Position numbers and translations under genes: made by a program. This document shows positions 34,512 to 63,569 of a stretch of 64,000 bases of DNA, piece after piece (position 1 is the first letter of the stretch; each line of letters starts with the position of its first letter). This DNA comes from an uncultured Solirubrobacterales bacterium. GTDB taxonomy: Bacteria; Actinomycetota; Thermoleophilia; Solirubrobacterales; 70-9. The stretch covers positions 24,344 through 88,343 of the forward strand of contig CAVSPF010000005.1 of NCBI GenBank assembly GCA_963729995.1, in the 5' to 3' direction. The notes under the pieces were generated by a model that was given only the letters and a program-made list of their open reading frames with translations, did no database searches and was not told the origin of the DNA.

Positions 34512-34553
34512 CCGCACCGCCCCGGCGGCGGTCGACATTGCGGCGCTGAGGAG

Positions 34554-34595
34554 TGCCCCGAGCAGGATTCGAACCTGCGGCCTACTCCTTAGGAG
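34554..34595 (-). pseudogene. 3' half of the resident tRNA-Arg(CCT), from anticodon loop to the discriminator base
   Basis: The reverse complement reads CTCCTAAGGAGTAGGCCGCAGGTTCGAATCCTGCTCGGGGCA. It joins the 5' half at 45106..45147 into a perfect 74-nt cloverleaf. Confidence 0.9.
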
Positions 34596-35235
34596 CGTCA
34601 GTTTGTCAAGTCCTGAACTGGCTTGAAATCCCGAAAGTGGCTTGCCAATGCGGTTTCGAAGAAAGACGCCAACGGCCGCCAGGGCGTCAGAGGGCAGATT
34701 TGTCCCAACCTTTGTTCCAACCCGGAGGCGCGATAATCGAGGCCATTGCCCCGGTAGCTCAGCTGGAAAGAGCGGCCGCCTCCTAAGCGGCAGGTCGCCG
34801 GTTCGAATCCGGCCCGGGGCACTCTTGTATCCATCGCTTTGTAGAACTCGGTCCAATTCCGATCGGGCCCAAAGACGGTGGCTCGGCTCCACCCGCGCCT
34901 CAGACGTAGGTCGAGGCGCAGGTGCTGTTTCGAGTGACTTGACACTTCTCTAAACACCCGACTTAGCACGGATATCCGCACAATCTCTTGGGGCGCCATC
35001 GGGCCGCTGGTTGCGGTCAGCTGCCCAGTTGTGGACTTGGCCACGAGCTGAGGCTCTGGCCAACAGGAGGAAGGTTTTGTCTCTTGTGGAAACCACGCCG
35101 TTTCCCTACAGTTACGGATTCCCGCAGGGGTTGCAGGGACGCAAAGGCCCTACTGGGCCTAGGGAAAGCAACAGGGATAGAAGGACCTCTCAACACAGAG
35201 AGAAGGGATCTGTGCGCAATTCCGCAAGGGATTGG
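34586..35235 (+). repeat. Left copy of the 650-bp perfect inverted repeat (core + arm with tRNA-Arg)
   Basis: It is the reverse complement of 42556..43205. Every block I compared is identical, and the ORF translations spanning the repeat are identical. Confidence 0.9.
34748..34821 (+). tRNA. tRNA-Arg(CCT), element-borne copy 1
   Basis: GCCCCGG TA GCTC AGCTGGAAA GAGC G GCCGC CTCCTAA GCGGC AGGTC GCCGG TTCGAAT CCGGC CCGGGGC A. All four stems pair perfectly. No encoded CCA. Confidence 0.92.
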
Positions 35236-35536
35236 ATCCCAGGCCGGCTAAAGCGAGTAGCCAAGGGTCACGCAAAGAGAGCAACGCGCTCTCGCCGACC
35301 CGAGATCCTTGAAAACCGAATCTTTGCGGCACCTGGCCTCCCCGCCCGCGGGGGCCTTGCTCCTTCCTGCCTGCATCTCGATGCCCGTCGGTTGGCTTTC
35401 GGGCCACAAACAGATGGCACCGGCAGCGAGCCCTGCAAGCCCTTGCGGGGCTCCTTGCGGCCCCTCCCTTCGGGTCGGGGTTCCGGGCTCACTGTCCGGC
35501 GCCCTCACAAGCCAACCGACCCGACCTCCCTACAGC

Positions 35537-35690
35537 TCGACAGGTTGGAACAAAAGGGAGTTGGAACGGATTGCCTATGAAGGTGAGAGAGACAGGCACC
35601 GATCACCACGGCAATGAGCTTCCCGATGGCATCTCCGCCACCACCCGCAAGGCCGACGGCGTCATCGTTGGGTCGTCGCCTGCCACCTGC
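35537..35690 (+). pseudogene. Decayed 5' fragment of a second integrase gene
   Basis: Homologous to the reverse complement of the int 5' region (about 44860..45006). Nearly identical over 35583..35670. A 10-nt length difference and a stop (..LEQKGVGTDCL*) break the frame. Confidence 0.75.
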
Positions 35691-35832
35691 GCAAGAGCCT
35701 TGTCCCCACTGCTTCTGCCTGACGGCCGGCCCGCCGTGGTTGGGTGGTGAGGGACCAGAAAAAGAAGCATCCAGGTCGGCAGCTCTGCTGCCGACTGCCG
35801 CCATTATCGGGGGGGTGTGGACGCCGGCGACG

Positions 35833-35891
35833 CCGGGGTCAAGGCCCTTCGGCCCCTGCGGGGCGGCCCTTCGGGCCGGCCTTGACCCCGG
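35833..35891. other. Compound GC-rich hairpin (14-bp outer stem enclosing two small hairpins)
   Basis: CCGGGGTCAAGGCC ... GGCCTTGACCCCGG with internal GCCCC-TGC-GGGGC and GGCCC-TTC-GGGCC. Confidence 0.6.
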
Positions 35892-36018
35892 CTTGTCGGC
35901 GACCGGGCTATAGATAGGTGGCTCAAGGGTTCGTTCTTGTCGACGCCCACCCGCTATCGAGTCCGCCTTGGGCCACCCCGCAATCTGTTTGCGCGAAGCG
36001 CTGGGGCTAGACAAGGGC

Positions 36019-37023
36019 CTACACAGGGTGTCCCTGGTTAGCACTGCGAAGTCCTGGGCGAGCAGACAAAAAGCGCCGGTAGCGCTCCTTCTGCCAAGGG
36101 CTTGGGTCGGCGTCCACCGCCGCGCGCACCTTGACCGGCAACCCCTCGTCGGTCCGCATCGCCAGCGGCGCCAGAAGGCGCCACGCCGCGAGCGCAGCTT
36201 CCTCACCGCGGTGGGCGAGGGAGTAGAGGACGTGGGCGGCGTAGTCGGCGAGCTGTAGGCCGGCGTCCTCATCTGATCGGGGTGTGCGGAGGCCACCGGA
36301 CAAGATTCGATCAGTCGCGACCCGTTTCTCTTCACCGATCCCGTTTCGCCGGTAGAAAGGGTGATCTGCGGGCCACTCTCCCGGAACGACGAGTTCGGTG
36401 CGGGTGTCGGCGGCGAAAATCGGCCCCACGACGTCGCGTAGGGCTTCGCCGGCCTTGCCGGGGTTCGCGCCCTCCCGCGGATCGACAGCGATGTCGAAGC
36501 TCCAGCTCTCCGCGGGTGGAAGCAGCGTCGTGTAGCCGATTGCGCCTGCCGAGAGCGCCCGGGCCAGAAGCCAGGGCATCAGGACCGCGTACTGAAAGAA
36601 GTCGGGTGCTGAAATGTGACGTTGGTTGTGAAAGCGGGTGCGCAGCCGCGCGATCGCCGCGCTTTTGCTCGGGTCGCCGGCCGCTGTCTTTGAAGCCGCG
36701 GCGGACCGCTCGAACTCGGCGACCTGGGCGGCGCGATGCGCACGCTGCGCCTTGGGGCCGAAGATCTCCGAGTCGCTGATGATGCCAACGAGGCGTAGGT
36801 CCGCGTCGACGAAGAACCCCGCGACCTCGAGCAACTGCCCCTCGTCCATTTCGCCTGCCTTGAGCTCACGGGGCATCTCCCAGTCGTGCCTTTTTTCGGC
36901 GACGAATTCCTCGACGGCGGCGACCTTGGAGTCCGGATAGACGACTGCCGCCACTACGCAGAGTGCGAGCGGAGAGGCGCTCTTGAAGCTGAACTGACCG
37001 GCCTCATCAATGCGGATCTTCAC
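36019..37023 (-). CDS. DUF3800-family protein
   Basis: N-terminal KIRIDEAGQ (the DUF3800 I-D-E-S/A-G motif) and C-terminal GLQLADYAAHVLY motif. GTG start. Confidence 0.65.
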   Translation of the reverse strand: MKIRIDEAGQFSFKSASPLALCVVAAVVYPDSKVAAVEEFVAEKRHDWEMPRELKAGEMDEGQLLEVAGFFVDADLRLVGIISDSEIFGPKAQRAHRAAQVAEFERSAAASKTAAGDPSKSAAIARLRTRFHNQRHISAPDFFQYAVLMPWLLARALSAGAIGYTTLLPPAESWSFDIAVDPREGANPGKAGEALRDVVGPIFAADTRTELVVPGEWPADHPFYRRNGIGEEKRVATDRILSGGLRTPRSDEDAGLQLADYAAHVLYSLAHRGEEAALAAWRLLAPLAMRTDEGLPVKVRAAVDADPSPWQKERYRRFLSARPGLRSANQGHPV

Positions 37024-37096
37024 CAGCCGATGATTACAGCGGACCCTCTGCTGGTGGCACCCGTCGGGCGTCCGTTCATCGTGCCATCTTCAGGAC

Positions 37097-38272
37097 ATGA
37101 GCAACGATCTCTTCGGTCTTGAGCGCTCCGGCTTCGCGGCCCAAGTGATGGAGTTGGCGAGGGCCGAGCGACCCTCGCGGCGCGAGGGCGAGCGACTCTT
37201 CGGTGAGCTGTTGGGCCGGATTGAGACGGCGCCGCCCGATCGCTTCGGCGAACTCTTCGCGTCCCCGGCCGTGCTGCGCTACCTGACCGAACACCTCATT
37301 AACGGTTATCTGCGCTTCCCGCTCGACGTCGGTTGGGCTCCGAAGAGCGCGCGCAGCTTCATCCGCGTGCGCGCGCTCAGCGCGCTCGGGCGCTACCCGA
37401 ACGCCAACGTCACCTGCCATCGCGGCGCCTACCGTATTCACCGCGGACGGCCTTACTTGGTCAGCGAGATCTCGCCCCGCGAGGAGGTGAAGTGGAGCTA
37501 TGGCTCAGAGCTCGCCGACTGGTCGCGCCAGGAGGTGCGAATGGCTACGGCGATCTCCTGCGCGGAGTCGGGCGGCTTCAACGCCTATATCAGCTCGAGC
37601 GCTTTCGACCTCCCCGACGAGGTTCTCGCCTGTGCCGAGCGTCGCACAGATCGCGTCGACTTCGCCCTGGAGTGCGCCGTGTTGGTCAGCGAAGCCTGGA
37701 ATCGATCCGCCATCAGTCGCGGTTACTCGACCCAGACCGCAGCCCCTGTCTTCGAGTTCGCCGACTACCGCGACCACATCGCCGGGGCACGGCGGCTCTT
37801 TGCCGGCTTTCGGGTCTCCAGCCCCCTGCTCCTGCGAACCGCTGGCCACTACCTGAAGGCGTCGATGCTGTGGGCGACTGACGGCTTCCGCGAAGACGCC
37901 CTCGCCAACCTGCTCTTCGCCCTCGAAGGGTGCATGCTGCTCTTTCAAGAGGGCAACGGCGCCCAGACTGAGCGGCTCGACCGTCCCCTGCTCACCGAGA
38001 TCTTCCGGCGCACCTACTTGCATGGAGAGAGCACCATGCACTTCGTCGAAGAGGGCCTCGGCTGGGGAGCGCGCCGCGCGCAGATCATCCATCCCCAACT
38101 CGCAACCGAGAACGGCTGGAAGCCGCTGATCTTCGGCGAGGATTACTACCTCTTCGACAAGATGGTGCGTGCCCTGCTCACCTACCTGATCAGCGGGCGC
38201 AGCTTCGAGGACTACGAGTTGGCCGAAGGATCGTCGCGGTTCGAAGCGGGGTGTTCACCGCCAGACCATTGA
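37097..38272 (+). CDS. Hypothetical protein with an alpha-helical C-terminal region carrying an Rx4H (HEPN-like) motif
   Basis: 391 aa. GWGARRAQIIHPQL fits Rx4-6H. No other motif recognised. Convergent with the four-gene operon. Confidence 0.5.
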   Translation: MSNDLFGLERSGFAAQVMELARAERPSRREGERLFGELLGRIETAPPDRFGELFASPAVLRYLTEHLINGYLRFPLDVGWAPKSARSFIRVRALSALGRYPNANVTCHRGAYRIHRGRPYLVSEISPREEVKWSYGSELADWSRQEVRMATAISCAESGGFNAYISSSAFDLPDEVLACAERRTDRVDFALECAVLVSEAWNRSAISRGYSTQTAAPVFEFADYRDHIAGARRLFAGFRVSSPLLLRTAGHYLKASMLWATDGFREDALANLLFALEGCMLLFQEGNGAQTERLDRPLLTEIFRRTYLHGESTMHFVEEGLGWGARRAQIIHPQLATENGWKPLIFGEDYYLFDKMVRALLTYLISGRSFEDYELAEGSSRFEAGCSPPDH

Positions 38273-38288
38273 CCCGGTAGGCCGACCG

Positions 38289-38954
38289 TCACGCTCGCTC
38301 CCACAGAACTGCCTCTACTTCACCTCCACACCGGCGCCGCTCGACCCGAATCGTCAGATCTGTAATATCGGGAATGCCACGTTCGACCGCTAGCTCAATG
38401 ATGGCGCTTTTGCCGCGGGCTCGCCGACGCTCCTCGAACGGATAGTCAGCCACTGGTAGAAACGTCTTTGATCCACGGGGTTGGGGCTTGTAGAGGGTAC
38501 TTCCTGAGTTAATAGGTGACAGCCGCACACGCTTAAGATGGCGCTGTAGTAGAAGATCAGTATCGACGTGAAGAACATCATGTGACTGATCTCGGTACGC
38601 ATTGGCTCCTAGTAGCGTCTCAAGATGAGGTTCGTCGAGCCAGAAAAATACTCGAGAGTTGAGCACATCAAGCCACTCCTCCAACGTCATATCCGTAAGA
38701 CATTGGCGAAGGGACTTCTCGCGCAATGGGATTTGATCCCGTACGATCGCCTCCCCGTACTCCCCGTGGCACAGGGGAACCGATAAAGGCCTACGCTGCC
38801 GAAGAATCGCCGAGCGTACGGGATCCTTAACCTCGTACAAGTCGATTAGAGCATGGGTAGACAACAGGCCATGCCGCTTGATGCTCTCCCACGAACCCTG
38901 TTGGGCCATGTGGTAAAGCGTCGGGTAATGGCGCACGATGTCAGCAGGATCCAT
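38289..38954 (-). CDS. DarT-like / ART-fold protein (putative ADP-ribosyltransferase; resembles what I recall as DUF7002)
   Basis: Order of motifs: TLYHMAQQGSWESIKRHGLLS (a [FY]H..-type NAD-site His), RVFFWLD, and SAIIELAVERGIP (candidate catalytic Glu). This matches the H / aromatic / E arrangement of DarT. The ATG at 38954 lies 2 nt after the upstream stop. The track uses a TTG at 38963. Confidence 0.5.
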   Translation of the reverse strand: MDPADIVRHYPTLYHMAQQGSWESIKRHGLLSTHALIDLYEVKDPVRSAILRQRRPLSVPLCHGEYGEAIVRDQIPLREKSLRQCLTDMTLEEWLDVLNSRVFFWLDEPHLETLLGANAYRDQSHDVLHVDTDLLLQRHLKRVRLSPINSGSTLYKPQPRGSKTFLPVADYPFEERRRARGKSAIIELAVERGIPDITDLTIRVERRRCGGEVEAVLWERA

Positions 38955-38956
38955 GG

Positions 38957-40564
38957 CTACCAAGCGCGTCGGTCGATCACGCTTCGGACGTGAAAGCGAG
39001 TTGATATCAACGAGACGGGAGCCGCCGCTACACGCTCAACCTCCTCGATAAAGCGAATAGTTTTGGGGGTGAGCTGATCGAAGCGGCGGGCCTGCCGATT
39101 CCTAACGTCGAGATAGTCGACAAAGGTGAGTGCGATGTCGGTTGCGCCATTGATCTCGGAAGCTTTTCGAAGTAGCTCCCAATCGAACTCTCCGACGCGC
39201 CGCTGCTTTTTCGACACCGATCCTTTCTCCACCCGGCGAAGCTCGCCATACGGGATCTTTGAGCGACGGGAAATCTCTCTCCAGTTGGTGCCCTGAGACA
39301 TCCAACCTGAGGTTTTACCTTTAGCCGTAGGGCTCTGTACCCGAATGGGATAAGTACGACAGACGACTATGACTCGGCGCACTCGACTCGGCGAGATGCC
39401 CATCTCAGCGAGACAACCGCTTGCCGTAGTGTCACGGGACGTGACGTGTGGATAGTGGCCGTGGTAATGGCTTAGGCCAGTGCCCTGCGTACCCTCAACC
39501 AGAACGCGGTCTCCGCGAGCGTAGGCATCGACGAGAATCTCATGGGCAGGCGCAATGAATGGCTTTAGTGGAGCGACGTCGCGCGCAAGCCGCATGTCGG
39601 CGCCTCGCTCGAGAATACGACGCGCAGTCGCTGCACCCACGCCTTGCCCAGTTGAGCCGATGTCCTTCACCAAGCCACCCTCAGCCTCGACGTCCGCACC
39701 GCTAATAATCATTGCTTGGGGGTCGATATGAAGTCTTCCGTGCTCCACACCGCAGGCCGCAATCTCGTCAAAGAGGACATCCACATTCAGCACCGCGCCA
39801 GGCCCAATCAGAATCGGCGCCTCGCTAGTAAGCGTTGCCGATGGAAGAAGACGATGGGTAAGCGTTTCGTCGCGTGGCACCTTATGGCCGGCGTTTGGAC
39901 CGCCAACCCGGCAAAGCAAATCGTACTCTGCTCCGATCGCGTAGGCGACATTACCCTTTCCCTCGCTGCCATATTGACCTCCAACGATGACATCCACGAG
40001 GGCACCCGGATCGCGGGCATTTAGACCGAGGTAGCTCGCTGCACGGACCTCGACGTCTTTCTTGGTGTTTTTGCCAGTATCAATGACGATATCGGCGTCG
40101 TGTTCCAACTCCGGAACTCTTCGCTCCGTCGGATCAGCGAGAACCTCGGCATAGCTCGCACGCTCCTTAAATCGTTGCCTTGGCCGCCTCCGATATCGCT
40201 GCTCCAACACCTCCCGCGGCGCGGTGAGGTGGACATGGACGACCTGACTCGGAAATCCATGTCTTAAGGCGTCAATTTGCTCAACAACCCGCGCCGAATC
40301 TATGACCACGACTTTATGTTCGTCCAACGCCGCAATCTGTGGTATGAAGTTCTCGGCCACCCACTTGCCGTTAGTTGCTTTGTCTAAGCGGGTTCCGAAG
40401 CGCTGCATCGCTCCGCGCTCCCGAGGTACTTCGCCGGCTGCCAGCCTTTCAAGGAGAGCGCTCGTCTTTAGATGGACCGCGTCAAAGCGCGCTTCGAGTC
40501 GGCTCGCGAGGGTCGTCTTACCAGCAGAAACAGGCCCCGATAGCACGACCACAACTCGGGCCAT
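38957..40564 (-). CDS. Fusion of a P-loop NMP-kinase-like domain and an adenylosuccinate-synthetase (PurA) homolog
   Basis: N-terminal Walker A LSGPVSAGKTTL. The C-terminal half aligns motif by motif with PurA: GGQYGSEGKGN (PurA GTQWGDEGKGK), GGPNAGHK (GGHNAGHT), IGSTGQGVGAA (IGTTGRGIGPA), EGTQGTGLSHYHGHYPHVTSRDTTASG ([27 protein letters not shown]). Confidence 0.8.
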   Translation of the reverse strand: MARVVVVLSGPVSAGKTTLASRLEARFDAVHLKTSALLERLAAGEVPRERGAMQRFGTRLDKATNGKWVAENFIPQIAALDEHKVVVIDSARVVEQIDALRHGFPSQVVHVHLTAPREVLEQRYRRRPRQRFKERASYAEVLADPTERRVPELEHDADIVIDTGKNTKKDVEVRAASYLGLNARDPGALVDVIVGGQYGSEGKGNVAYAIGAEYDLLCRVGGPNAGHKVPRDETLTHRLLPSATLTSEAPILIGPGAVLNVDVLFDEIAACGVEHGRLHIDPQAMIISGADVEAEGGLVKDIGSTGQGVGAATARRILERGADMRLARDVAPLKPFIAPAHEILVDAYARGDRVLVEGTQGTGLSHYHGHYPHVTSRDTTASGCLAEMGISPSRVRRVIVVCRTYPIRVQSPTAKGKTSGWMSQGTNWREISRRSKIPYGELRRVEKGSVSKKQRRVGEFDWELLRKASEINGATDIALTFVDYLDVRNRQARRFDQLTPKTIRFIEEVERVAAAPVSLISTRFHVRSVIDRRAW

Positions 40565-40568
40565 CGGA

Positions 40569-41948
40569 CTAAACGTCGAGCCTCAGCTCATCGCCGGCAG
40601 GATTAGCAACCTCCTCGATTGGCTTCCCAGGAGGTACGTAGACCTTCACCGGAGTGCCATTTCGCGTAAGCGTTTCCTCGATAATCTCTCGAATGACAAG
40701 CCAACGGCCGCCAGCCTGACCGGCTCCTAGTCGAGGCATGTGAATTGCTGCGCCTTGGTCTTTCGCAAAGTGAGCCACTGTCAGTAACGCGTCGCGGACG
40801 GCGGCATAGCGAATACGGGGCCGTGCGGAGGGTCCGTAGCCATGCTGGCCGACAATCGTGGCTACATATAGGCCGCTACCAACGTCTGTTATATGGGCGT
40901 CGCCTAACCGGAGGCCGCCGTGGTGTGTCTGTGCCCACACTCGGAAGTCATCCTGTGCCTCCGGATACTCCCGCCGTAACGCTCGAGCGAACTCGCCTCC
41001 CCAATTTGGCGTCTTATCATTTACCAAGTGCACAATCACTCGTGCTCCTGACCCGTGCGGCTTAGTGGCGTCACCGTGTACCACAGTAGGCTCGATGTCG
41101 GGAACCGATCGTACTCCGTGAGGCTGCAGTAAGCCGAGCACGCGCGGAAAACGCTGTCCTGGAAATGGCGGCGTACCTACGGCTTGAACCAGGAGATCGC
41201 GAAGGCGATCAGACCAGTCTTCCCGGTCCTTTGCAGTAAAGCCCACAGCAGTGCACTCCGAGAGCACCGAACCGGCGGGCCGCCGTTCACCCCGTGAGAT
41301 GGGCGGCCTCCATGCTCGCGATGGAACCGTATAGTCAATTCGAAATGGCGACGCAGCCGACAGTGGATCGACATGGGCCGCGGCAAACATCGCGACAGGG
41401 TAGGTCGCTAGCTTCGTCGCTCGACGCAAAAGTACCTCCGTAGAGACACCATACGCCTCACGCAGTTCCAGGAGATGCTCTATCTGCGACGGGCCCTCCC
41501 GTAACGCGGGAAGGGTGTCCGCCGGCATCAGAAACTCAGCAGCGATTATGTTGCAGAGAAGCTCAAGCTGCCAACCGTCTGGCGGGTCGGCCGCTGGATT
41601 ATTGCGATAGCGAGAGACTCTCGCGACATCTGGGAAGAGGGTATGCGCCAACTCATGGGCGAGGGAAAAGCGGACGCGATACTTGGGCCGCGTCGGGTTG
41701 TACTCAATTACGAGTTTCCGACCGATCGGAAGCGTCCGCGCATCCAGTAGTTCGTCCTTGGGGACCACCTCAATCCCCAGAATCTCCGCCAACTCGAGAG
41801 GATCAAACGGCGGACCTTCCCAGCCTTTCTCGACGGCACCAAAGACAACGTCTTGTGCTGCCTTTTCGGCAGCTTCAATGGGATCACGATCCCGCGCGAA
41901 ATCGAGGACGGATTCATTGGTCCAATAAGCCGACATCTCGAAGATCAC
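40569..41948 (-). CDS. Fusion of an ImmA/IrrE-type zinc metallopeptidase and a macrodomain (DarG/TARG1-like)
   Basis: HEXXH in RFSLAHELAHTLF with ImmA-like context. The C-terminus has GDATKP..RVIVHLVNDKTPNWGGEFARAL..YPEA and IHMPRLGAGQAGGRW, which are macrodomain motifs. GGAGG lies 5 nt before the GTG at 41948. The track uses a TTG at 41960. Confidence 0.75.
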   Translation of the reverse strand: MIFEMSAYWTNESVLDFARDRDPIEAAEKAAQDVVFGAVEKGWEGPPFDPLELAEILGIEVVPKDELLDARTLPIGRKLVIEYNPTRPKYRVRFSLAHELAHTLFPDVARVSRYRNNPAADPPDGWQLELLCNIIAAEFLMPADTLPALREGPSQIEHLLELREAYGVSTEVLLRRATKLATYPVAMFAAAHVDPLSAASPFRIDYTVPSRAWRPPISRGERRPAGSVLSECTAVGFTAKDREDWSDRLRDLLVQAVGTPPFPGQRFPRVLGLLQPHGVRSVPDIEPTVVHGDATKPHGSGARVIVHLVNDKTPNWGGEFARALRREYPEAQDDFRVWAQTHHGGLRLGDAHITDVGSGLYVATIVGQHGYGPSARPRIRYAAVRDALLTVAHFAKDQGAAIHMPRLGAGQAGGRWLVIREIIEETLTRNGTPVKVYVPPGKPIEEVANPAGDELRLDV

Positions 41949-41965
41949 TCTAGCCTCCAAAGAGG

Positions 41966-42319
41966 CTATATCGATGGAGCGGAGTGGCTCAGACCCTGCA
42001 AGCTGCCAAGGAGGAGCCAGGCAAACTCCATTGTCGCCCGCAAATGGCCTCTACAGCCATCCCACGCTGGCTCAGAGGGCAATCCATCGAGCAAGGCGAC
42101 CACGTTGTCCAGCCCAAGCTTTAACGCCTGCCGGTCCTTGTTGTGCGATCGCTCAACTACAGCCGCCGTTAGAAGGAACAATTCCTTGGCCGAGGGAATC
42201 TCGCCTCGGGCGACGCGGCTCGCAATTCGCCCCGAAGCCCGCGCCACATGCTCGGTTACGGTCGCTTCGGACGGCGTCGTCATGAAAGCGAGACGTTCGT
42301 TGGGAACAAGTGAGGACAC
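41966..42319 (-). CDS. Small hypothetical protein, first gene of the operon
   Basis: 117-aa ORF (GTG start, no clear SD). Its stop lies 17 nt before the next start. It occupies the position an ImmR-type partner would take, but I see no HTH motif. Confidence 0.4.
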   Translation of the reverse strand: MSSLVPNERLAFMTTPSEATVTEHVARASGRIASRVARGEIPSAKELFLLTAAVVERSHNKDRQALKLGLDNVVALLDGLPSEPAWDGCRGHLRATMEFAWLLLGSLQGLSHSAPSI

Positions 42320-42483
42320 CCGTGCAGGGCTTTTGTCTCAGCCGCAAGCATGCAGCGGGGCCACAAAGGATTCGAGTGCCATTCCGGGAACTGCAATCAA
42401 CGGCGCATCCTGAGATCAGCTCAGGCTGAGTTCCAATCGAGAAGTTCCCCCGTGTTACCTGAGCCCGGTGAGCAACACGGTGC

Positions 42484-42512
42484 TTGACAGAGTGTGTGCA
42501 TTTCGGTACTAT
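42484..42512 (+). promoter_or_regulatory. Near-consensus sigma70/SigA-type promoter pointing into the right inverted repeat
   Basis: TTGACA (42484..42489), a 17-nt spacer, then TACTAT (42507..42512, fits TAnnnT). It lies in the AT-richer region divergent from the operon. Confidence 0.5.
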
Positions 42513-42555
42513 CAGTTTCCATTGCACTGTCACTATTCACTCCGTTGCCACTCAC

Positions 42556-43205
42556 CCAATCCCTTGCGGAATTGCGCACAGATCCCTTCTCTCTGTGTTG
42601 AGAGGTCCTTCTATCCCTGTTGCTTTCCCTAGGCCCAGTAGGGCCTTTGCGTCCCTGCAACCCCTGCGGGAATCCGTAACTGTAGGGAAACGGCGTGGTT
42701 TCCACAAGAGACAAAACCTTCCTCCTGTTGGCCAGAGCCTCAGCTCGTGGCCAAGTCCACAACTGGGCAGCTGACCGCAACCAGCGGCCCGATGGCGCCC
42801 CAAGAGATTGTGCGGATATCCGTGCTAAGTCGGGTGTTTAGAGAAGTGTCAAGTCACTCGAAACAGCACCTGCGCCTCGACCTACGTCTGAGGCGCGGGT
42901 GGAGCCGAGCCACCGTCTTTGGGCCCGATCGGAATTGGACCGAGTTCTACAAAGCGATGGATACAAGAGTGCCCCGGGCCGGATTCGAACCGGCGACCTG
43001 CCGCTTAGGAGGCGGCCGCTCTTTCCAGCTGAGCTACCGGGGCAATGGCCTCGATTATCGCGCCTCCGGGTTGGAACAAAGGTTGGGACAAATCTGCCCT
43101 CTGACGCCCTGGCGGCCGTTGGCGTCTTTCTTCGAAACCGCATTGGCAAGCCACTTTCGGGATTTCAAGCCAGTTCAGGACTTGACAAACTGACGCTCCT
43201 AAGGA
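42556..43205 (-). repeat. Right copy of the 650-bp perfect inverted repeat
   Basis: Reverse complement of 34586..35235 (coordinates sum to 77791). Ends with the core CTCCTAAGGA at 43196..43205. Confidence 0.9.
42970..43043 (-). tRNA. tRNA-Arg(CCT), element-borne copy 2
   Basis: Identical to the copy at 34748..34821, in inverted orientation. Confidence 0.92.
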
Positions 43206-43317
43206 ACCCTTCGTAGCGCGACAGCGGGCGAACGGTTACCTCCCTCAAAGCCACTCGTAGAGCCGAATTAGGCTGATCGAGAGTGGAGCAGATCCGCCGC
43301 TTGTTCGACAGGTTGGA
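43196..43317 (+). repeat. Left copy of the 122-bp perfect inverted repeat (core + integrase-proximal arm + first 35 nt of int)
   Basis: Checked base by base against the reverse complement of 44994..45115 and found identical. With the adjacent 650-bp repeat it forms an intact attP-like junction in inverted orientation. Confidence 0.9.
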
Positions 43318-44993
43318 CCGACTGGAGAGTCGCCAGCGCGAGCGCTCGGAGAGCGATCAGCACCCGGCCAAGAACCTATGGCTACGGACGCCGAAACGGG
43401 CGACGGCGCCGCTGAAAGGCAGCCTGATGCTGGGGGGATTAGGCCGGAACAGCGGGATGCCGCTCTGGCTCTCGAGCCCTGCGTCTTCGGGCTTGACGCT
43501 CGCCCTCTTTAGCGGCACGAGCCCGCCGCCGACTCTGGGCCTCCCGCTGAGGGCCCTCTCGCTCGTCGGGCTTGAATGGATTCTGTTCGACTCCGAGCCG
43601 AGCCCGCCGACACTCGTCCTCGATCTCAAACGGCGGCTGGCCGAAGTAGCGGGCGATCAGGTGGCTGTAGTAACGCTGCAGGGTCTCGATGTCGTGTGCC
43701 GCCCACCCGGCAAGCAAGTGCAGGTTCATTCCGTGGGGTCCCATCACCAGGGTTGAGTGAAGGGCCATCGAAATTGCCGTATGGCGACAGTCGTAAAAGG
43801 TCATTCTGTGGAGCCCGACGGGTGCGTCCGGCGCTTGCGCCGCGGCGGTCCGGGCCGGAATCCACACTCTTTTGACCCACTGGTTGTAGTTGTTCTTTGT
43901 CCACGCCAGCGGTACCGGTTCGCCCCCATCCTCTGGCGTCACCCATATAGGCCCTTCGTCACCAAGGGCCTGAAAGACCAAACCATTCTGCGGCTGAGGC
44001 CCGAAGCGATCCTCCAGCGCTTCGCGGTAGACGGCGATGCGATCCCAGGCGTTGGGGAGAACGAGGGCGACGTGCGCCCCCGTCTTCAAGCCTGGGATGA
44101 CTTCCGGATCGCCCTGGCGCGCCCGCTGCAGCTCGACCGTCCCGATCCCGGCGCTTGGGTCTGGCGGGGCAAACAGATTTTCCCAGGCGGCCGACAGACG
44201 CCATTCGGATGGTCGCGAGGCGATGGTGTAGCCCATCGCTGCCACTAAGGCGGCATCGCGGAGCGGCAACAGATCATCACGCGCTGGACGAGCCAGCACC
44301 GCCTCGATGATCCGCTCCAAGCCGATCGCATCAGCGGCGTAGGCGAGGCGCGATTTGCTCTGCTTGGGAAGCTGGATCAGTCCCGACAGCTCCACGGTAA
44401 GAGCGTTTGGGTGCCGGCGCCTTCCCCAGCGCATGACGGCTCGAAACAGTTTCAGGATTTCTCGTCGCTTTGATTGCTTCAAACCGTCGGCGATCAGTTC
44501 ATCCTGAAAGCGGACAAGAGTCGCGGGGTCCGCTGAAATTCGATCAAGTCGTGTTCGTCCGATTGGTCGCGGCTCGATCTCCTTCGCCCAAAATTTGGCC
44601 GACCTCTCGTGGTATTCCTGGCTCACTTCCGGTCCGTGGTTCACGATCCACTCGCGGAGAAGATCGTTCGGAGTCATGGCGCAGGCCGGGTCGACTCTGA
44701 CCACCGCGCCGTCGACCTTGACCGCTTCGCGGGCTTCCGCGAGGAAGGTGACCGCCGCCTCCAACGCTCGATCCAACGAGCCCAGCTTGCGCTCCGAGAA
44801 CGAACGGCTCGGATGACGCCTGATCCCGTTGTGGTCCTCCTCCCACCAGCGACTCCGGTAGCCGACGATGACGCCGTCGGCCTTGCGGGTGGTGGCGGAA
44901 ATGCCATCGGGAAGCTCATTGCCGTGGTGATCGGTGCCTGTCTCTCTCACCTCCAAAGCCATCCGTTCCAGCCCCTTTTGTCCCAACCTCTGT

Positions 44994-45147
<154 letters not shown>

Positions 45148-51976: not shown

Positions 51977-52190
51977 ATGACTCGCAAAGTGCAGCGAGTG
52001 GGCCTGTGAGGATTAGGGCTTCCTAAGTCCTTGTCAATGCCAAATATTCGTCCAAAGTTCCGTCTGACGCTCAAGTCACTGCAATTGCATAGCTATTGCA
52101 CAGATATTTGGGGGGAACTTTGGAGGATTTTCGGGCAAGAAGTGAAAATCTTGAGGGCCATCGGATAGTTGTTAGTGCCGGGAGCCACCG

Positions 52191-52535
52191 GTGAGAGTCG
52201 CACTCGGCACATTTGCGCGCTCGGGAATCGAGGCCCGTTTCGGGACCGACGTCCCCGCGGGGGCGCAGGCGGCCCTGCTGCACTACACCCGTCGGCTGAT
52301 GTCGGGCTGGCCGCCGATCGGCATCCCACGGTTTATCAGCGGCCGAGCCTCCGGCGAGGAGGAAGTCACGGTCGAGCTCTCGGTCAGCCCGGAGATACAG
52401 GCCGCCCTGGAACGTGAGGCCCGCAGGCACCAGGTGCCCGTGCGTCAGGTTCTGGAGCACGCCGTGTTCGTCTACCTGGCGGACCTGGACTCCGCCTCCG
52501 AGGCGGATCGGACGCACGGCGCGCCCGTGGCGTAG
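52191..52535 (+). CDS. Hypothetical protein, paralog of 49669..50079
   Basis: See 49669..50079. Divergent from the sigma factor gene. Confidence 0.5.
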   Translation: MRVALGTFARSGIEARFGTDVPAGAQAALLHYTRRLMSGWPPIGIPRFISGRASGEEEVTVELSVSPEIQAALEREARRHQVPVRQVLEHAVFVYLADLDSASEADRTHGAPVA

Positions 52536-52645
52536 GCACCCGGTAGGAAAGCCGGCCTGACCTGGGCCGCCACCCTCGGCTGAGTGCGAAGGTTGAGGCT
52601 TGTTGGGATATTTCGACACTGCATGCTCGTCGGAATATCCCGTCA

Positions 52646-52918
52646 TTGCTACAGTGTCGGATTATGCCGACAGACCACAACAAGCCTGACTCCAAGGGCC
52701 CGTTCCGGATCTACACCCCTGCTTCGCTGGGGGATGCGATCCGCCACTACCGGACAGAGGCCGGTTTGACACAGGCGCAGCTCGCGGAGATGGCCGGGCT
52801 GCAGCGGAGCTACCTCTCCGAGCTGGAGAGCGGAAAGGAGACCGAGCAGCTGAAGCGGGTCCTGCGAGTGCTGCGACAGCTTGGGGTGCGAATGACGCTC
52901 GATGAGGCGGATTGGTAG
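52646..52918 (+). CDS. XRE-family helix-turn-helix protein (HipB-like, orphan)
   Basis: LTQAQLAEMAGLQRSYLSELESGKE HTH motif. Alternative start at 52664. Confidence 0.7.
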   Translation: MLQCRIMPTDHNKPDSKGPFRIYTPASLGDAIRHYRTEAGLTQAQLAEMAGLQRSYLSELESGKETEQLKRVLRVLRQLGVRMTLDEADW

Positions 52919-53114
52919 TGGGGCTCAAGCGCGAGAGGATGCACGGCAGTCAACGCCGCTGACTTGCCAGCGAACTCCAGGCCCGAACTCCAACACGAGT
53001 CCGCCGGGAGTGATCAGCTCCCAATTCGGAGGATCGTCATCTGCCTCGCGCGTAGCGGGCCTCACATCGAGCGCAGAACATTTGCAGGCGAGATATCCAG
53101 GGCGCCGGAGCCCG

Positions 53115-53477
53115 TCAAGCCGAAACGACCAGCTCCCGCTTCGGTGTCCGCCGCAACTTTGGGTTGGGCGCCTCATCCTGAAAGCCGTAGACAAGATGAG
53201 TATCGAGTGCCTTGGCGAGCTTGCGCATGGTCGCGAAGCTGAAGCGGTGTTGGCCGCTCTCCAGGCGGGAGACCACCGAATGGCTCGTCCCCATCCTCTC
53301 GGCCAGCTCCTGCTGCGTGAGGCCGAGCTGCATTCGCTTGCGGATCACCAGCCGAGCGAACTCCTCATAGGGCAGCTGCTCCTCCAGGGCCGCCCTGTAT
53401 GCGGCGCTCTTGCGCGCATACTTCTCCATGCTCTCGGCATGGGAAGCCCCGATTGGCGAGTGTTCTTTACGAGCCAT
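53115..53477 (-). CDS. XRE-family HTH antitoxin (HigA-like)
   Basis: LTQQELAERMGTSHSVVSRLESGQH. Lies 68 nt downstream of the Gp49-like toxin gene on the same strand. Confidence 0.75.
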   Translation of the reverse strand: MARKEHSPIGASHAESMEKYARKSAAYRAALEEQLPYEEFARLVIRKRMQLGLTQQELAERMGTSHSVVSRLESGQHRFSFATMRKLAKALDTHLVYGFQDEAPNPKLRRTPKRELVVSA

Positions 53478-53545
53478 TTCCGTCCGATCCCGTTGCCAGC
53501 CTCATCGGCACCTTAGCAAAACTGCTAAAGCCATCGGACGGAATT

Positions 53546-53995
53546 TCAGGGCGCGTCGCTACCCGCCGCCCGAGGCGGGACTCGCTTGTCCGCATCCATC
53601 CGCTCCTTGAAGTCGCGCCAGCGCCGCTTGGCAATTTCGATCTCCGCCTTTGGAACCGCGCCGGTCGTCTTGCGGATCATGTGCAGCAGGACGAACAGAT
53701 TGCCCGATCGTTGGTAGAGGATGCGGTAGTGCGCCCGCCCGTAATGGCAGCGAAGCTCGCGCAGCGGCCCGTAGATCTGCGACGTGTGGGGAAACGGCAA
53801 CGGCGGGTCGTCGTTGGCGAGTCCGTTCAGCCGGTCGATCTGAAGGTCCATCGTCATCCGCTTGGTGGCTGCCGCTTCAACCTCGCGTGCGCTCGGATTC
53901 TTCTTCCGCGGCTCGACCGGGAACTCGCGGTCGAGGAACTCCGTGACGGGTTCGGCGCCGCTGGCGGCTCGGTAATAGATGGCCTGCGTAGCCAC
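53546..53995 (-). CDS. RelE/ParE-superfamily toxin, phage Gp49/HigB-like
   Basis: LRELRCHYGRAHYRILYQRSGNLFVLLHMIRKTTGAVPKAEIEIAKRRWRDF matches the Gp49-like (COG4679-type) pattern. Confidence 0.7.
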   Translation of the reverse strand: MATQAIYYRAASGAEPVTEFLDREFPVEPRKKNPSAREVEAAATKRMTMDLQIDRLNGLANDDPPLPFPHTSQIYGPLRELRCHYGRAHYRILYQRSGNLFVLLHMIRKTTGAVPKAEIEIAKRRWRDFKERMDADKRVPPRAAGSDAP

Positions 53996-54413
53996 GAGCC
54001 GACACTATCCACGGTCGCCGACAGCGAATCGCCAACCCCACGCGGCTGTGGCGGAGCTGGTAGACGCGCAGCGAACCCCCGGGCCCGAACTCCAAGACGA
54101 CGCCGTCGAGCGCCAGCTGGCGCAGCTCGCAACGTAGGAAGAACGGCGGAGAGTGCGCGTTTCGCTTGCGGGCTGCTGGCGATCGTCCGATGCGGCTGGG
54201 AGAGTGGCCCTGGAGGGACTCCCGCGATGACGATGCCGTTGGCGATATCCCTGTTCGCCTGGATCGGGTTGCTGCCGGGCCTGGTGGTTGCGCTGCGGCT
54301 GCGCAGGGCGGCCGCCTCAGGCCCCGCCGCGCAGGCGCCCGCCGCGATGGTTGGAAATTCGGCCCACTCGTGCCAGCGGGGCCGGGTCAGGCGCGTTCCC
54401 TGTGAGGCGACCC

Positions 54414-56981: not shown

Positions 56982-57014
56982 TTCGAGAAGCGGTGACCCC
57001 CGACCGAGCCTCAA
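56650..57014 (+). repeat. 365-bp direct repeat, copy 1 (3' third of the TagA-family gene plus the first 37 nt of the GT4 gene)
   Basis: Matches 58387..58751 at a constant offset of 1737. The translations of both copies are identical. Confidence 0.85.
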
Positions 57015-57064
57015 AGGGGAGGGGATTGGGCCGTGCCCTGGCCCCGACCTCTCGAACCGTCTAA
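56978..57064 (+). pseudogene. Truncated 5' fragment of the GT4 glycosyltransferase gene
   Basis: VIREAVTPDRAS is identical to the start of 58715..59962. It then diverges and stops after 28 codons. Confidence 0.6.
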
Positions 57065-57066
57065 AA

Positions 57067-57948
57067 ATGACCCTCGCGAGAAGACTCGACCTAGCGGGCC
57101 TCCAGAAACCTCGACAGTACCTAGATCGACGACTGTGGGACCTCGAGCGGTTCGGCCTGACGCCGAAAAAGATCGCACTCCGCTTTCACGGGTCACCGGC
57201 TCCGCCGGTGGTATTCACGTCAATCCCAAAGGCCGGCACCCATCTAACGGAGCGCCTTCTGTGCCTCCATCCCCACTACTACCGGACGATCGTCTCCACG
57301 ATCTCATCTCCCAAACTCCTAACTCAACACGCCGCGTCCTTGTCCAACGGCCAGCTTATCTGCGCGCATGTACAGTACTCCGACGCTGTTGACCGTATGC
57401 TTCGCGAACATGGGATCAAATTGATATTCAGCATCCGAGACCCGCGCGATATCTTGGTCTCCCGAGCTCACTATATCTACAACTCTCGCGACCATTACCT
57501 TCATGACCTGGCCCTCCGTTATCCCAACCTATGTGATCGAATAGCAGTCCTGATCGAAGGAGAGCCCAACTCACGACTGGTGCCATATCGCGAGGTTTTA
57601 CGCGGCTTCGCCGGCTGGCTCTCGCGCGACGTCATCGTCGTCCGATTCGAGGACCTCATTGATCGGCACCGTCGACCACAAGTCGTCGCGGAAGTCTTTG
57701 AGGACCTCGGAGCCCCTGTCGATAGGTCTGAAAGTGAGAGGATCGCCGCGTCGACCGCGTCCGCCGCGAGCCCGACCTTCAGACGCGGCAAGGCCGGAGA
57801 GTGGAGGCAAGTCTTCGACGAGCGAGTGCACAGGCTCTTCCACGAAGCCGTTGGCGACATGCTCCCTGCGCTCGGTTACCAAGATGCGGACACTATGTGT
57901 ATCGAGACACCGTCCCAGCCTACGGATAACCGTAGAGGAAATCCGTAG
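57067..57948 (+). CDS. Sulfotransferase-family protein
   Basis: 5'-PSB-like loop SIPKAGTHLTE and 3'-PB-like FSIRDPRDILVSRAHY. Clearly lower GC than its surroundings. Confidence 0.7.
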   Translation: MTLARRLDLAGLQKPRQYLDRRLWDLERFGLTPKKIALRFHGSPAPPVVFTSIPKAGTHLTERLLCLHPHYYRTIVSTISSPKLLTQHAASLSNGQLICAHVQYSDAVDRMLREHGIKLIFSIRDPRDILVSRAHYIYNSRDHYLHDLALRYPNLCDRIAVLIEGEPNSRLVPYREVLRGFAGWLSRDVIVVRFEDLIDRHRRPQVVAEVFEDLGAPVDRSESERIAASTASAASPTFRRGKAGEWRQVFDERVHRLFHEAVGDMLPALGYQDADTMCIETPSQPTDNRRGNP

Positions 57949-58085
57949 CGGTACGGACCAGACCCTGAATCGGTCCACCTCGCATGCGACTCCTCAATAT
58001 GTTCTGTTGGTTTGGTTGCCCGCGGCAAGAGACCTTTTGTCATACTATGTCGACGCATGTCGAGATATCATTACTGGCCGTTGGG

Positions 58086-58237
58086 GCCGGCGTTTGATTT
58101 TCCATGCCGGTGTGATCCAGCGGGCACCGAAGTGGATCCAGAGAATAGGCTTGGAGGGGATGTACCGACTTATGTCAGAACCGCTCCGCTCTTGGCATCG
58201 CTATTTTTGCTTAATTCGCTCTACTGACACTTCTTAG
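58086..58237 (+). pseudogene. Diverged C-terminal remnant of another WecB/TagA-family gene
   Basis: GRRLIFHAGVIQRAPKWIQRIGLEGMYRLMSEPLRSWHRYF parallels FDFIAGNKHRAPKAMQRLGLEWLYRLAAEPRRLSGRYL. Low GC and no N-terminal part. Confidence 0.6.
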
Positions 58238-58386
58238 TGCCCAATTTATACGTTTGTGGTGTCCAGATCCGCAGACTACTACTACCATTGATCCAACAGA
58301 TGGAACTCCGGGGTAGTAGTCGAGTCCCCTGAAGATCATGCAGAACTTCCAGAGGCACCTCAGGCAACTACCCGTTACGGCCTCCA

Positions 58387-58751
58387 ATGCGCCCGAGGCT
58401 ACACTCAGCGCAGAGGCCATCAAGTCGGCCAAACCGCAAGTCGTCTGGTGTGGCCTCGGAGTGCCCAAGCAGGAGCTGTGGATGCGGCGCCACGCGCCGA
58501 GCCTCGCCCCAGCGCTCGTGGTCGGGGTGGGCGCAGCCTTCGACTTTATTGCAGGCAACAAGCACCGCGCGCCGAAGGCGATGCAGAGGCTCGGCCTCGA
58601 GTGGCTCTACCGTCTCGCGGCGGAGCCCCGCCGGCTGAGTGGCCGCTACCTGCGGACGAACAGCGAGTTTCTCGCCCTTCTCGGCTGGGAGCTTCTGCAG
58701 CACCGGGGTGGCACGTGATTCGAGAAGCGGTGACCCCCGACCGAGCCTCAA
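58387..58751 (+). repeat. 365-bp direct repeat, copy 2 (an orphan TagA 3' third, 58387..58718, fused upstream to unrelated low-GC DNA)
   Basis: See 56650..57014. The 126-aa track ORF 58338..58718 is only the duplicated C-terminus with a fortuitous start. Confidence 0.85.
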
Positions 58752-59984: not shown

Positions 59985-60020
59985 GTCGTGAGCGAACTTG
60001 GCGCGGTTCTTCGCCTGCGG
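59985..60020 (+). repeat. 36-nt direct repeat, copy 1 (1 mismatch versus 62493..62528)
   Basis: GTCGTGAGCGAACTTGGCGCGG(T/C)TCTTCGCCTGCGG. Confidence 0.85.
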
Positions 60021-61853: not shown

Positions 61854-62130
61854 CCGATCTATTGTCGACAGGAGCGACCAGACCCTTGACTGCCTAATAG
61901 TGCTTTGTTAGCTCAACGGTAGGGTTCGCCCTACCCGCGGCGAACTCCCTCGCGACGATCGTTCTACGCGAGGAGGGCATGAGTCGGCGGTGCCCTGGCG
62001 GATTCGGACCCGCGTGAGAAGCTCGAGGCGCCCTCGACGGTGCGCGAGCGCCTGGAGGAGTTCGGGCGCGAGATGACTGAGCCTGAATCCACCGACTCCA
62101 TGCGCCGCCTCACCCGCCACGGGCCGCCGC

Positions 62131-62220
62131 TGGACGCAGCACCTCTCCGCCCGCTGGCCCTGGCAAGAAAACTTCATCGAGGCGCTTGAGCGGATCCGTG
62201 CCTTGCCCGCAGCTGCCTGA
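62131..62220 (+). pseudogene. Possible C-terminal remnant of a DDE transposase (IS1380-like), tentative
   Basis: The frame reads ..HLSARWPWQENFIEALERIRALPAAA*, resembling my recollection of the ..LP..WPW...F...L.R.RALP transposase C-terminus. Upstream frames are broken. Confidence 0.3.
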
Positions 62221-62492
62221 TTAGCCTTCCGGTCTCGCCACCGCCCGCTGATTCACTCGGCCTGACCGGGCTGCCCGAAGTCGGTTGCCCGACTGCCGCG
62301 AGCACCCGCCCGCGCTCCCGCGCTGAGCCGACCGGTCCACGGCCGGCGGTTTTCGCCACTCACACGGTGAGGAGCGGCGGTTCCCTTATCGCTGACGGTG
62401 AATCGGTGGATTCAGGCCGAGATGGAGGACCCATTTTTGACAATTTCTCGTTCAGGTGTCGACGTCGGGGCCACTGCAAATGGCGACACTCA

Positions 62493-62528
62493 GTCGTGAG
62501 CGAACTTGGCGCGGCTCTTCGCCTGCGG
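62493..62528 (+). repeat. 36-nt direct repeat, copy 2
   Basis: See 59985..60020. Confidence 0.85.
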
Positions 62529-63563: not shown

Positions 63564-63569
63564 TGGCTC

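Follow-up and report, generated by a model that had tools for sequence, protein, structure and literature searches.

The 64,000-nucleotide stretch of DNA analysed here (the window), from an uncultured Solirubrobacterales bacterium, carries at positions 38289-42319 four closely packed minus-strand open reading frames (ORFs), which we call A to D in the order in which they are read. The last three (positions 38289-41948) are one copy of a widespread, horizontally mobile and undescribed cassette. They encode an M78 peptidase joined to a macrodomain (B), a P-loop kinase joined to a PurZ-like domain (C) and a DUF7002 protein with a predicted ADP-ribosyltransferase (ART) fold (D). The genes, domains and key residues are as follows.

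41966-42319, minus strand: ORF A, 117 aa, a small ORF upstream of B, from the ORF list
40569-41948, minus strand: gene B, 459 aa, M78 peptidase and macrodomain (longest ORF 40569-41960)
41418-41783, minus strand: M78 peptidase domain of B (Pfam Peptidase_M78, E 1.4e-14)
41643-41657, minus strand: HEXXH motif of B, H98-E99-x-x-H102, conserved in the family alignment
40614-41084, minus strand: macrodomain of B, by alignment to 2afc/2fg1
40845-40847, minus strand: Gln368 of B, equivalent in a residue-level alignment to the essential Gln85 of SCO6735
38957-40564, minus strand: gene C, 535 aa, P-loop kinase and PurZ-like domain
40136-40552, minus strand: kinase domain of C, residues 5-143 (AAA_33, E 1e-10)
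40514-40537, minus strand: Walker A motif of C, GPVSAGKT, within the kinase domain
38966-39997, minus strand: PurZ-like domain of C, residues 190-533 (Adenylsucc_synt, E 1e-51)
39965-39967, minus strand: Ser200 of C, at the position of the PurA catalytic Asp13, in the phosphate loop GGQYGSEGKG
38289-38954, minus strand: gene D, 221 aa, DUF7002 (longest ORF 38289-38963)
38910-38912, minus strand: His15 of D, in the motif YHMA, invariant or near-invariant
38394-38396, minus strand: Glu187 of D, invariant or near-invariant

The start of gene B was placed at the GTG codon at 41948, which has GGAGG 5-6 nucleotides ahead of it, and independent gene calls gave the same 459-aa product. Gene D starts at the ATG codon at 38954, and its 221-aa product is identical to an independently called protein (P0121). 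With these starts the spacers are 17, 4 and 2 nucleotides long (A-B, B-C and C-D), in agreement with the original prediction of four minus-strand ORFs separated by 2-17 nucleotides, whose shorter starts are the better supported ones. The GC content of the four-ORF block is 58.2% (55.1% for D alone), compared with 70.3% in the left flank and 68% in the right. Single 60-nucleotide lines within the block range from 45 to 73%; lines of 48-55%, as quoted earlier, do exist, but they lie below the true mean of the block. A scan of positions 38000-43100 for promoters and terminators found sites no more numerous than in shuffled sequence. Genes B, C and D are genuine genes rather than chance ORFs, since hundreds to thousands of homologs occur in the same order elsewhere.

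For gene B, the predicted fusion of an ImmA/IrrE-type HEXXH peptidase to a macrodomain held. The peptidase half has the Pfam match listed above; the Pfam Macro match fell below threshold, and a search of the PDB with the C-terminal 160 residues found BT1257 (E 1e-28), SCO6735 (E 4e-25) and ALC1/CHD1L (E 2e-8). SCO6735 is an ALC1-class hydrolase that strips the thymidine-ADP-ribose made by DarT from DNA and rescues cells from that toxin (PMC9411070), and its catalysis uses Gln85 in place of the lysine of DarG and TARG1 (PMC9411070). The search for the B family gave 1100 matches. Across 112 members of the family, conservation is at least 98% for the HEXXH motif, for Gln368 and for the diphosphate-binding loop, and because of this both halves of B look catalytically competent; the VND motif, the glutamine of GQHG and the G-x-G loop of the macrodomain are conserved in the same 112 members. 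Matches to the PADLOC models were partial, with capP at E 2.4e-16, DarG at E 4e-6 and RmrA also strong, and the NCBIfam model antitoxin_DarG was matched at E 4.5e-5, with 22.9 bits against a cut-off of 250.

Like the peptidases of ImmR/ImmA, of CapH/CapP in CBASS and of the RmrA-type antitoxins, B has an intact M78 HEXXH motif and stands at the head of a defence-type operon. Unlike theirs, its peptidase carries a fused macrodomain and, in one variant, a DprA/SLOG domain as well. These fusions, together with the lack of a conserved helix-turn-helix (HTH) partner, suggest that B is under the control of a ligand or of ADP-ribose rather than being part of a simple repressor-cleavage circuit. The variant (P0314, on a contig of the JGI metagenome 3300056388) has the DprA/SLOG domain at its N-terminus (PF02481, E 7.6e-45), and the order at its locus is a phosphoribosyltransferase gene, the SLOG-M78-macro variant of B, C and D. 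SLOG domains serve as nucleotide-ligand sensors in other defence systems.

Gene C had been described as a kinase fused to a full-length PurA homolog. The fusion to a P-loop kinase stands; the second domain is instead the short archaeal or PurZ-type form, in which the catalytic Asp is replaced by Ser. The matches of this domain among solved structures were Pyrococcus horikoshii PurA (E 9e-54) and phage PurZ (E 1e-27). It scored 190.9 bits against the NCBIfam PurZ model NF038379 (amino_Aden_PurZ), below the threshold of 300, and the best model in the NCBIfam search was that of archaeal PurA (PRK04293), with 286 against a cut-off of 368. More than 120 full-length homologs of the kinase-PurZ-like fusion were found, with 55-81% identity to C. 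The change of Asp13 to Ser is invariant, both in the C homologs (118 of 118) and in the linked genes of the fetched loci (59 of 59), while the other PurA catalytic residues K16, N38, H41, T129, Q224, T239, R305 and D333 are retained. Serine at this position is the hallmark of PurZ, being found in 147 of 147 phage PurZ sequences, whereas Asp13 is 99% conserved in PurA (PMC12884076; PMC8515928). PurZ converts dGMP, aspartate and ATP to N6-succino-2-amino-2'-deoxyadenylate (PMC8342488).

A neighbour-joining tree was built from 17 cellular C domains, seven phage PurZ/PurZ0 sequences, P. horikoshii PurA and Escherichia coli PurA, the last used only as outgroup and residue-numbering reference. The cellular C domains were monophyletic in 100 of 100 bootstraps. 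With two true PurA sequences sampled, C and phage PurZ/PurZ0 together excluded P. horikoshii PurA, again in 100 of 100, with C as a separate sister clade, a placement of C with phage PurZ rather than PurA that we regard as suggestive. The serine signature and this grouping in a limited tree mark C as probably PurZ-like and suggest that its chemistry is on (d)GMP and not on IMP. In the vicinity of PurZ, one study lists just four archaeal sequences with Ser or Gly and makes no mention of kinases (PMC12884076).

The likeness of C to phage PurZ/PurZ0 thus lies in the short PurA fold, the Ser in place of Asp13 in every member, the otherwise retained catalytic residues and, tentatively, the grouping in the limited tree. 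It differs from them in being cellular and plasmid-borne, in its kinase fusion, in its altered aspartate-binding loop and in its linkage to DUF7002 and the ImmA-macro protein rather than to DatZ, MazZ or DpoZ. Phage genomes carry PurZ as a stand-alone domain, with 26-36% identity to that of C, and the kinase-PurZ fusion was found in no phage of the collection searched. Neither DatZ, MazZ/DutZ nor DpoZ was seen in the window or the loci examined. D was also absent from 50,697 phage genomes, and a phage origin of the cassette was rejected on these two absences, of D and of the fusion.

The kinase domain of C matched the PADLOC dCTPase model at E 5.9e-8 (residues 4-171 aligned to model positions 155-326) and a PHROG dNMP kinase at 1.8e-5; against the PDB it gave only weak, generic matches to nucleoside monophosphate (NMP) and adenosine phosphosulfate (APS) kinases. 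Its fusion to a PurZ-like domain parallels, by analogy of layout, the architecture of the anti-phage dCTP deaminases. AvcD/DcdV proteins likewise combine an N-terminal P-loop kinase with a C-terminal nucleotide-modifying enzyme and lie in defence islands. They differ from C in that its catalytic domain is PurZ-like and not a cytidine deaminase, in that an ART-fold partner is present here, and in that no AvcI RNA is known for the cassette.

Gene D matched DUF7002, and no other Pfam family, at E 4.6e-67. It had no match in NCBIfam or PADLOC at E 0.1, or in PHROGs, and none to any DarT/DUF4433 model in Pfam, PADLOC or NCBIfam. A profile made from the DUF7002 alignment, searched against PDB sequences, returned noise only, without DarT, so that there is no link to DarT at the sequence level. 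A single-sequence AlphaFold model of D was discarded for its predicted local distance difference test (pLDDT) of 36.6. The AlphaFold2 model from an alignment of 103 sequences reached a pLDDT of 93.9 and a predicted template modelling score (pTM) of 0.89, and the best 50 PDB matches listed by Foldseek for this model were all ART folds. First among them was E. coli DarT1 with NAD (8baq; E 6.4e-4, probability 1.0, template modelling score 0.42-0.44), followed by cholera toxin A1, a Thermosipho DarTG fusion, pertussis toxin S1, Tpt1/KptA and Scabin. Against viral models (BFVD), Foldseek gave weak matches to ART, Tpt1 and DarT.

The invariant or near-invariant positions of D are YHMA, GLLST, R55, R72-D73-Q74, N99, F103-F104-W105, Y120, the PINSGST loop, R160 and E187. 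By sequence, they fit the H / aromatic / E pattern of the ART fold, in keeping with the order YH, FFW, E that had first led to D being called ART-like. On the modelled structure D is an ART-fold protein with a putative transferase activity. The epithet "DarT-like" proposed earlier survives at the level of the fold ranking, where DarT1 is the best structural match, and is to be dropped at the level of sequence. More than one class of target is conceivable for D, since cholera toxin scores almost equally and Tpt1 superposes with a lower root-mean-square deviation (rmsd). DarT1, Scabin/ScARP and the pierisin class are ARTs that modify the guanine 2-amino group in DNA or mononucleotides. DarT1 and Scabin are among the structural matches of D, and the product of PurZ-type chemistry also has a 2-amino group; D has no sequence relationship to these enzymes, and the lead comes from fold ranking and chemistry. 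In a scan of longer DUF7002 proteins for informative fusions, the only partners seen were DUF6998 and TPR.

The distribution of the genes was surveyed with a pattern and tblastn scan of one genome per GTDB species. A relative of DUF7002 is encoded in 450 genomes, about 0.24% of GTDB species. In a profile search of 1.84 billion representative sequences, DUF7002 gave 1991 clusters at E<=1e-3, 566 of them at E<=1e-30. Gene architecture was assessed at about 80 loci, and the counts include a manual correction of four misclassified rows. The 80 loci listed by the GTDB scan belong to Actinomycetota, Acidobacteriota, Verrucomicrobiota, Planctomycetota, Chloroflexota, Gemmatimonadota, Myxococcota, Binatota and Alpha-, Beta- and other Proteobacteria and, in the archaea, to Nitrososphaerota and Bathyarchaeia. 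The expectation that the genes would co-occur in other genomes was borne out, about 56 of the roughly 80 assessable loci (about 70%) having B, C and D collinear. About 10 others have C and D without B (in Bradyrhizobium, Aminobacter, Sorangium, Corallococcus and Lentzea and on plasmids of Agrobacterium fabrum and Burkholderia thailandensis). In three more, D is accompanied by just a fragment of C, and D stands by itself in about 11. The B-C-D and C-D loci together span at least nine bacterial and two archaeal phyla, and the linked genes keep 40-80% protein identity across phyla.

In the assessed loci C always lies between B and D, and B and D are never adjacent. C and D abut or overlap in the annotated plasmids and are 2 nucleotides apart in the window; on the A. 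fabrum plasmid pAt1D132a (At1D132_RS24085/80) and on that of B. thailandensis (U9S59_RS30035/40) the pair is annotated only as "adenylosuccinate synthetase" and "hypothetical protein". The tightest and most general link is therefore that of C with D, to which B is a frequent addition, and the conserved unit is the three genes B-C-D with a two-gene core C-D. The four-gene unit first proposed did not survive, as the 117-aa ORF A recurs only in the nearest relative of the window copy (L089).

It is very improbable that the genes stand together by chance or as a decaying remnant without a joint function. Three loci with only a C-terminal fragment of C beside D, and the missing deoxynucleoside kinase (dNK) gene that the closest relatives of the window copy possess, would fit such a remnant, but more than 60 loci, which represent at least 11 phyla, keep the genes in the same order at the identities just given, the catalytic residues are invariant in all three proteins, and the three ORFs are intact in the window. 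At the three loci (L013, L030 and L009; just upstream of position 6001), the fragment of C adjoins an intact DUF7002 gene, which suggests that C decayed while D was kept. Solitary DUF7002 genes, with neither B nor C nearby, were seen in L057, L076, L081, L078, L082 and L042. By eye, some solitary copies follow ftsY-like or recO/era-like genes in Alphaproteobacteria, or a large polymerase-like gene in Rubrobacteraceae.

A pairing in the manner of DarTG was weighed against these data. It would make D a toxin that ADP-ribosylates DNA or RNA and the macrodomain of B an antitoxin released by an ImmA switch, with C as an accessory for nucleotide supply. The cassette resembles DarTG in encoding an ART-fold protein, with DarT1 as its best structural match, together with a macrodomain of the ALC1-like class that also holds DarG and TARG1; SCO6735, its nearest solved relative, reverses the action of DarT, B has the weak matches to the PADLOC and NCBIfam DarG models given above, and B and D occur together in about 70% of loci. 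On the other hand, D belongs to the separate family DUF7002, without a DarT/DUF4433 model match or a sequence match to a solved DarT, and the score of B is far short of the DarG cut-off. Its macrodomain belongs to the SCO6735/BT1257 subclass, with Gln for the catalytic Lys of DarG, and is fused to an ImmA peptidase where that of DarG is fused to a DarT-binding domain. The ART and macrodomain genes are separated by C, the tightest link is not that of B with D, and D also occurs without a macrodomain partner. An obligate toxin would not tolerate the C-D loci that lack B and the loci with D alone. The toxin-antitoxin pairing of D with the macrodomain put forward in the original prediction is accordingly doubtful, and we consider this explanation unlikely.

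An arrangement of the AvcD/DcdV type is in our view improbable too. Here C would be the sole effector, depleting or corrupting guanine (deoxy)nucleotides, and D and B would regulate it, perhaps by adding ADP-ribose to C and removing it again. The shared layout of kinase and nucleotide enzyme, the alignment of the dCTPase model to residues 4-171, the (d)GMP substrate implied by the PurZ signature, the dNK gene of the relatives and the presence of C in every system-type locus all favour it. Yet D matches C in tightness of conservation, its putative catalytic residues are all invariant, and it also exists without C. Moreover, PurZ-type chemistry uses dGMP, so that depletion would also need a dGTP pyrophosphatase, of which none is linked, and no earlier case of such an enzyme under the control of ADP-ribosylation was found.

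The surroundings of the cassette were sampled by scanning 150 neighbouring ORFs from 47 loci against Pfam and PADLOC. Among the matches were restriction-modification methylases, type I restriction enzymes, ThsB, KwaA/KwaB, PD-Lambda-1, AbiEii, Bil components, CapP, RmrA, PIN, transposases, ParB, ArdC and SSB. No single neighbour was conserved in this sample. At one locus the cassette adjoins Kiwa (KwaA/KwaB) and Abi_C, at another Mrr and a DNA methylase. A further locus has an AAA-ATPase/UvrD pair (Gabija-like), a metallophosphoesterase, an integrase and VapBC near the cassette, and one more has a transposase, a PDDEXK nuclease and an integrase. Qualitatively, such surroundings are characteristic of variable defence islands and of mobile elements, which fits the original idea of a conflict system. 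Near the copy in L089 there is also a PycTM gene with a 298-aa gene upstream of it, possibly a Pycsar-type pair, and separately a pair of HTH and Peptidase_M78 genes (5772-7153 and 7791-9057).

The same surroundings bear on the suggestion that the cassette gives the element or cell a benefit other than immunity, as a pathway for the synthesis or repair of a modified purine or of a nucleotide linked to ADP-ribose. Such a pathway might serve for a partial substitution of 2-aminoadenine in the DNA of the element as a shield from host restriction, or Tpt1-like processing of NAD or ADP-ribose and repair of nucleic-acid ends. A dNK, a kinase and a PurZ-like enzyme resemble a dedicated line for dZTP, a nucleotide accepted by most polymerases (PMC8342488). 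D matches Tpt1/KptA with the lowest rmsd, some solitary copies of D lie in apparently housekeeping contexts, and the cassette is carried by plasmids and integrative islands. Set against this are the absence of the partners DatZ, MazZ and DpoZ from the window and loci examined, a sporadic spread over so small a fraction of GTDB species, neighbours that are highly variable and rich in defence genes, and the ImmA and macro modules, which are typical of conflict systems. D is also absent from the phage genomes searched, though phages are known users of Z-DNA. A purely non-immune role is in our view unlikely.

As had been anticipated, no complete known system was matched among the PADLOC models. 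PADLOC-DB 2.0 (2023) has models for neither D nor the PurZ-like domain, matches C through its kinase only and matches B partially. No named system with this combination was found in PADLOC-DB 2.0, NCBIfam or the accessible full-text literature (most subscription papers lying outside it), and papers dealing with DUF7002, or with an enzyme of the adenylosuccinate-synthetase type in defence, were not found in the same literature. The cassette is neither DarTG, nor PurZ proper, nor AvcD/DcdV, nor an ImmR/ImmA or CapH/CapP pair, each of which it departs from in the respects given above. By analogy, it would work most like a hybrid of DarTG, AvcD/DcdV and the ImmA/CapP-type switches.

The reading we prefer, at a probability of roughly 45%, is that the cassette is an undescribed conflict system coupling guanine-nucleotide conversion with NAD-dependent ADP-ribosylation. 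Its role would most likely be anti-phage defence or abortive infection, as cargo of defence islands, plasmids and integrative elements. The original view of an undescribed conflict system is therefore reasonable, and the mechanism set out here is a hypothesis. It starts from what was observed of the cassette, namely domain identities, conservation of catalytic residues, linkage, phyletic spread and genomic setting. That the core consists of two enzymes, with purine nucleotides and NAD+ as their substrates, is favoured by the C-D link, by the kept catalytic residues and by accessories that come and go and are themselves centred on nucleotides (dNK, phosphoribosyltransferase and SLOG).

From these we infer the enzymatic activities, their substrates, the order of events and the defence phenotype. 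C, in the style of PurZ, would convert (d)GMP, aspartate and an NTP to N6-succino-2-amino-(d)AMP, a step that its fused kinase, and in some relatives the extra dNK, might feed or extend. As a result G nucleotides would be drained, 2-aminopurine nucleotides made, or both. With NAD+, D would then place ADP-ribose on a purine-type base, in a nucleotide or in DNA, or on another target in the same pathway. The macrodomain of B would erase this mark and so shield the host, until a signal of infection or damage switched the ImmA-type peptidase.

A bolder version, which we think unlikely as a joint reading, is that cells too use PurZ chemistry, the kinase-PurZ-like enzyme supplying succino-2-aminoadenylate or deoxynucleotides of 2-aminoadenine that serve immunity as a weapon or a signal. 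In that version the linked dNK and host PurB might help C, DUF7002 would be a new ART that marks 2-amino purines (G or Z) in nucleotides or in DNA under replication, the ImmA-macro protein would be a reversible safety catch, and the family would be the cellular sister, possibly the source, of phage PurZ.

Several findings weigh against the reading of the cassette as a conflict system of this kind. The grouping of C with PurZ comes from a neighbour-joining tree with just two true PurA sequences. The aspartate-binding loop of C is unlike that of both PurA and PurZ (R303 is K or R, and R304 is Q, K or R), and for this reason the amino-acid substrate of C may not be aspartate. The likeness of D to DarT is one of fold only, with cholera toxin at a nearly equal score and Tpt1 at a lower rmsd. 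About 11 loci have D by itself, in some cases seemingly among housekeeping genes, and so D need not be toxic or specific to defence. An HTH substrate for the ImmA domain is not conserved, and no conserved upstream gene was found in the loci examined. Finally, the neighbourhood evidence is qualitative and without a background control.

If the cassette proves to be a working defence system, it would represent a new enzymatic logic, in which purine amination or succinylation of the PurZ type is coupled to ADP-ribosylation. It would also provide the first function for the DUF7002 family, which at 50% identity comprises about 2000 clusters, and would place a large cellular clade beside phage PurZ where the literature notes only four archaeal outliers. 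Such a clade bears on the origin of the phage 2-aminoadenine (Z-DNA) pathway. The cassette family is large, crosses the divide between bacteria and archaea and sits in defence islands, and tractable carriers exist on plasmids of Agrobacterium, Rhizobium, B. thailandensis and Ralstonia and in genomes of Sorangium, Corallococcus, Actinoplanes and Nocardioides.

ORF A had no match in Pfam, PADLOC, NCBIfam or PHROGs and no tblastn match in the first 84 loci. It is similar only to an ORF in L089, and was called as a gene in an independent assembly. It is thus lineage-specific and lies outside the conserved cassette. A role for ORF A as an ImmR-like substrate, and so as a conserved component, was rejected on the same grounds. 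In nine of the B-C-D loci, the closest relatives of the window copy, a dNK gene directly follows D. This gene (PF01712) overlaps the end of DUF7002 at 10296-10862 in L004 and 4198-4764 in L089, and also in L005, L006, L008 and L010-L012. The window copy lacks this gene, and D is followed directly by a convergent gene.

In the window the cassette lies within an integrated island of about 10.5 kb, with the following features.

34588-45115, no strand: integrated island, with direct copies of the core CTTAGGAG at both ends
34553-34587 (3' half) and 45108-45147 (5' half), minus strand: split host tRNA-Arg(CCT), called by ARAGORN on the joined halves
42969-43043 (minus strand) and 34748-34822 (plus strand): two identical copies of an intact island tRNA-Arg(CCT), called by ARAGORN
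43439-45028, minus strand: island integrase, a divergent tyrosine recombinase (phrog_1, E 6.2e-16)

The host tRNA-Arg(CCT) gene is interrupted at the anticodon loop, and the 8-bp core of that loop, CTTAGGAG, is present as a direct repeat at 34588-34595 and 45108-45115. When the halves were joined in silico, ARAGORN called an intact tRNA-Arg(cct), which differs slightly from the two island-borne copies. Both of the latter lie within a 650-nucleotide perfect inverted repeat (34586-35235 / 42556-43205). The integrase had no Pfam match at E 0.1. The split halves, the repeated core and the intact tRNA copies show that the island is inserted in the anticodon loop of the host tRNA-Arg and supplies a replacement tRNA. 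The earlier description of the block as cargo of a tRNA-integrated element was thus correct, and the boundaries of that element are now defined.

A separate short-read assembly (L087), made from a different run, matches positions 35639-42585 of the window at 100% identity, and its contig stops 30 nucleotides inside an arm of the 650-nucleotide repeat. A 122-nucleotide perfect inverted repeat flanks the integrase (43196-43317 / 44994-45115), an intact attP-like junction with the core CTCCTAAG lies at 43196 between the two inverted repeats, and the 5' end of the integrase has two short extra copies, at 43283-43317 (plus strand) and 35572-35671 (95% identical). Either related elements integrated in a nested or inverted way, which would account for the repeats of the island, or the integrated and excised forms became tangled during assembly.

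Two further cargo ORFs, of 334 aa (36019-37023, minus strand) and 391 aa (37097-38272, plus strand), were also called in the independent assembly. Neither had a match in Pfam, NCBIfam, PADLOC or PHROGs, and they may form another unknown cargo module. Elsewhere in the window, positions 13001-14000, 52001-54000, 57001-59000 and 60001-64000 have a GC content of 59-64% against a background of about 70%, and may be further horizontally acquired segments.

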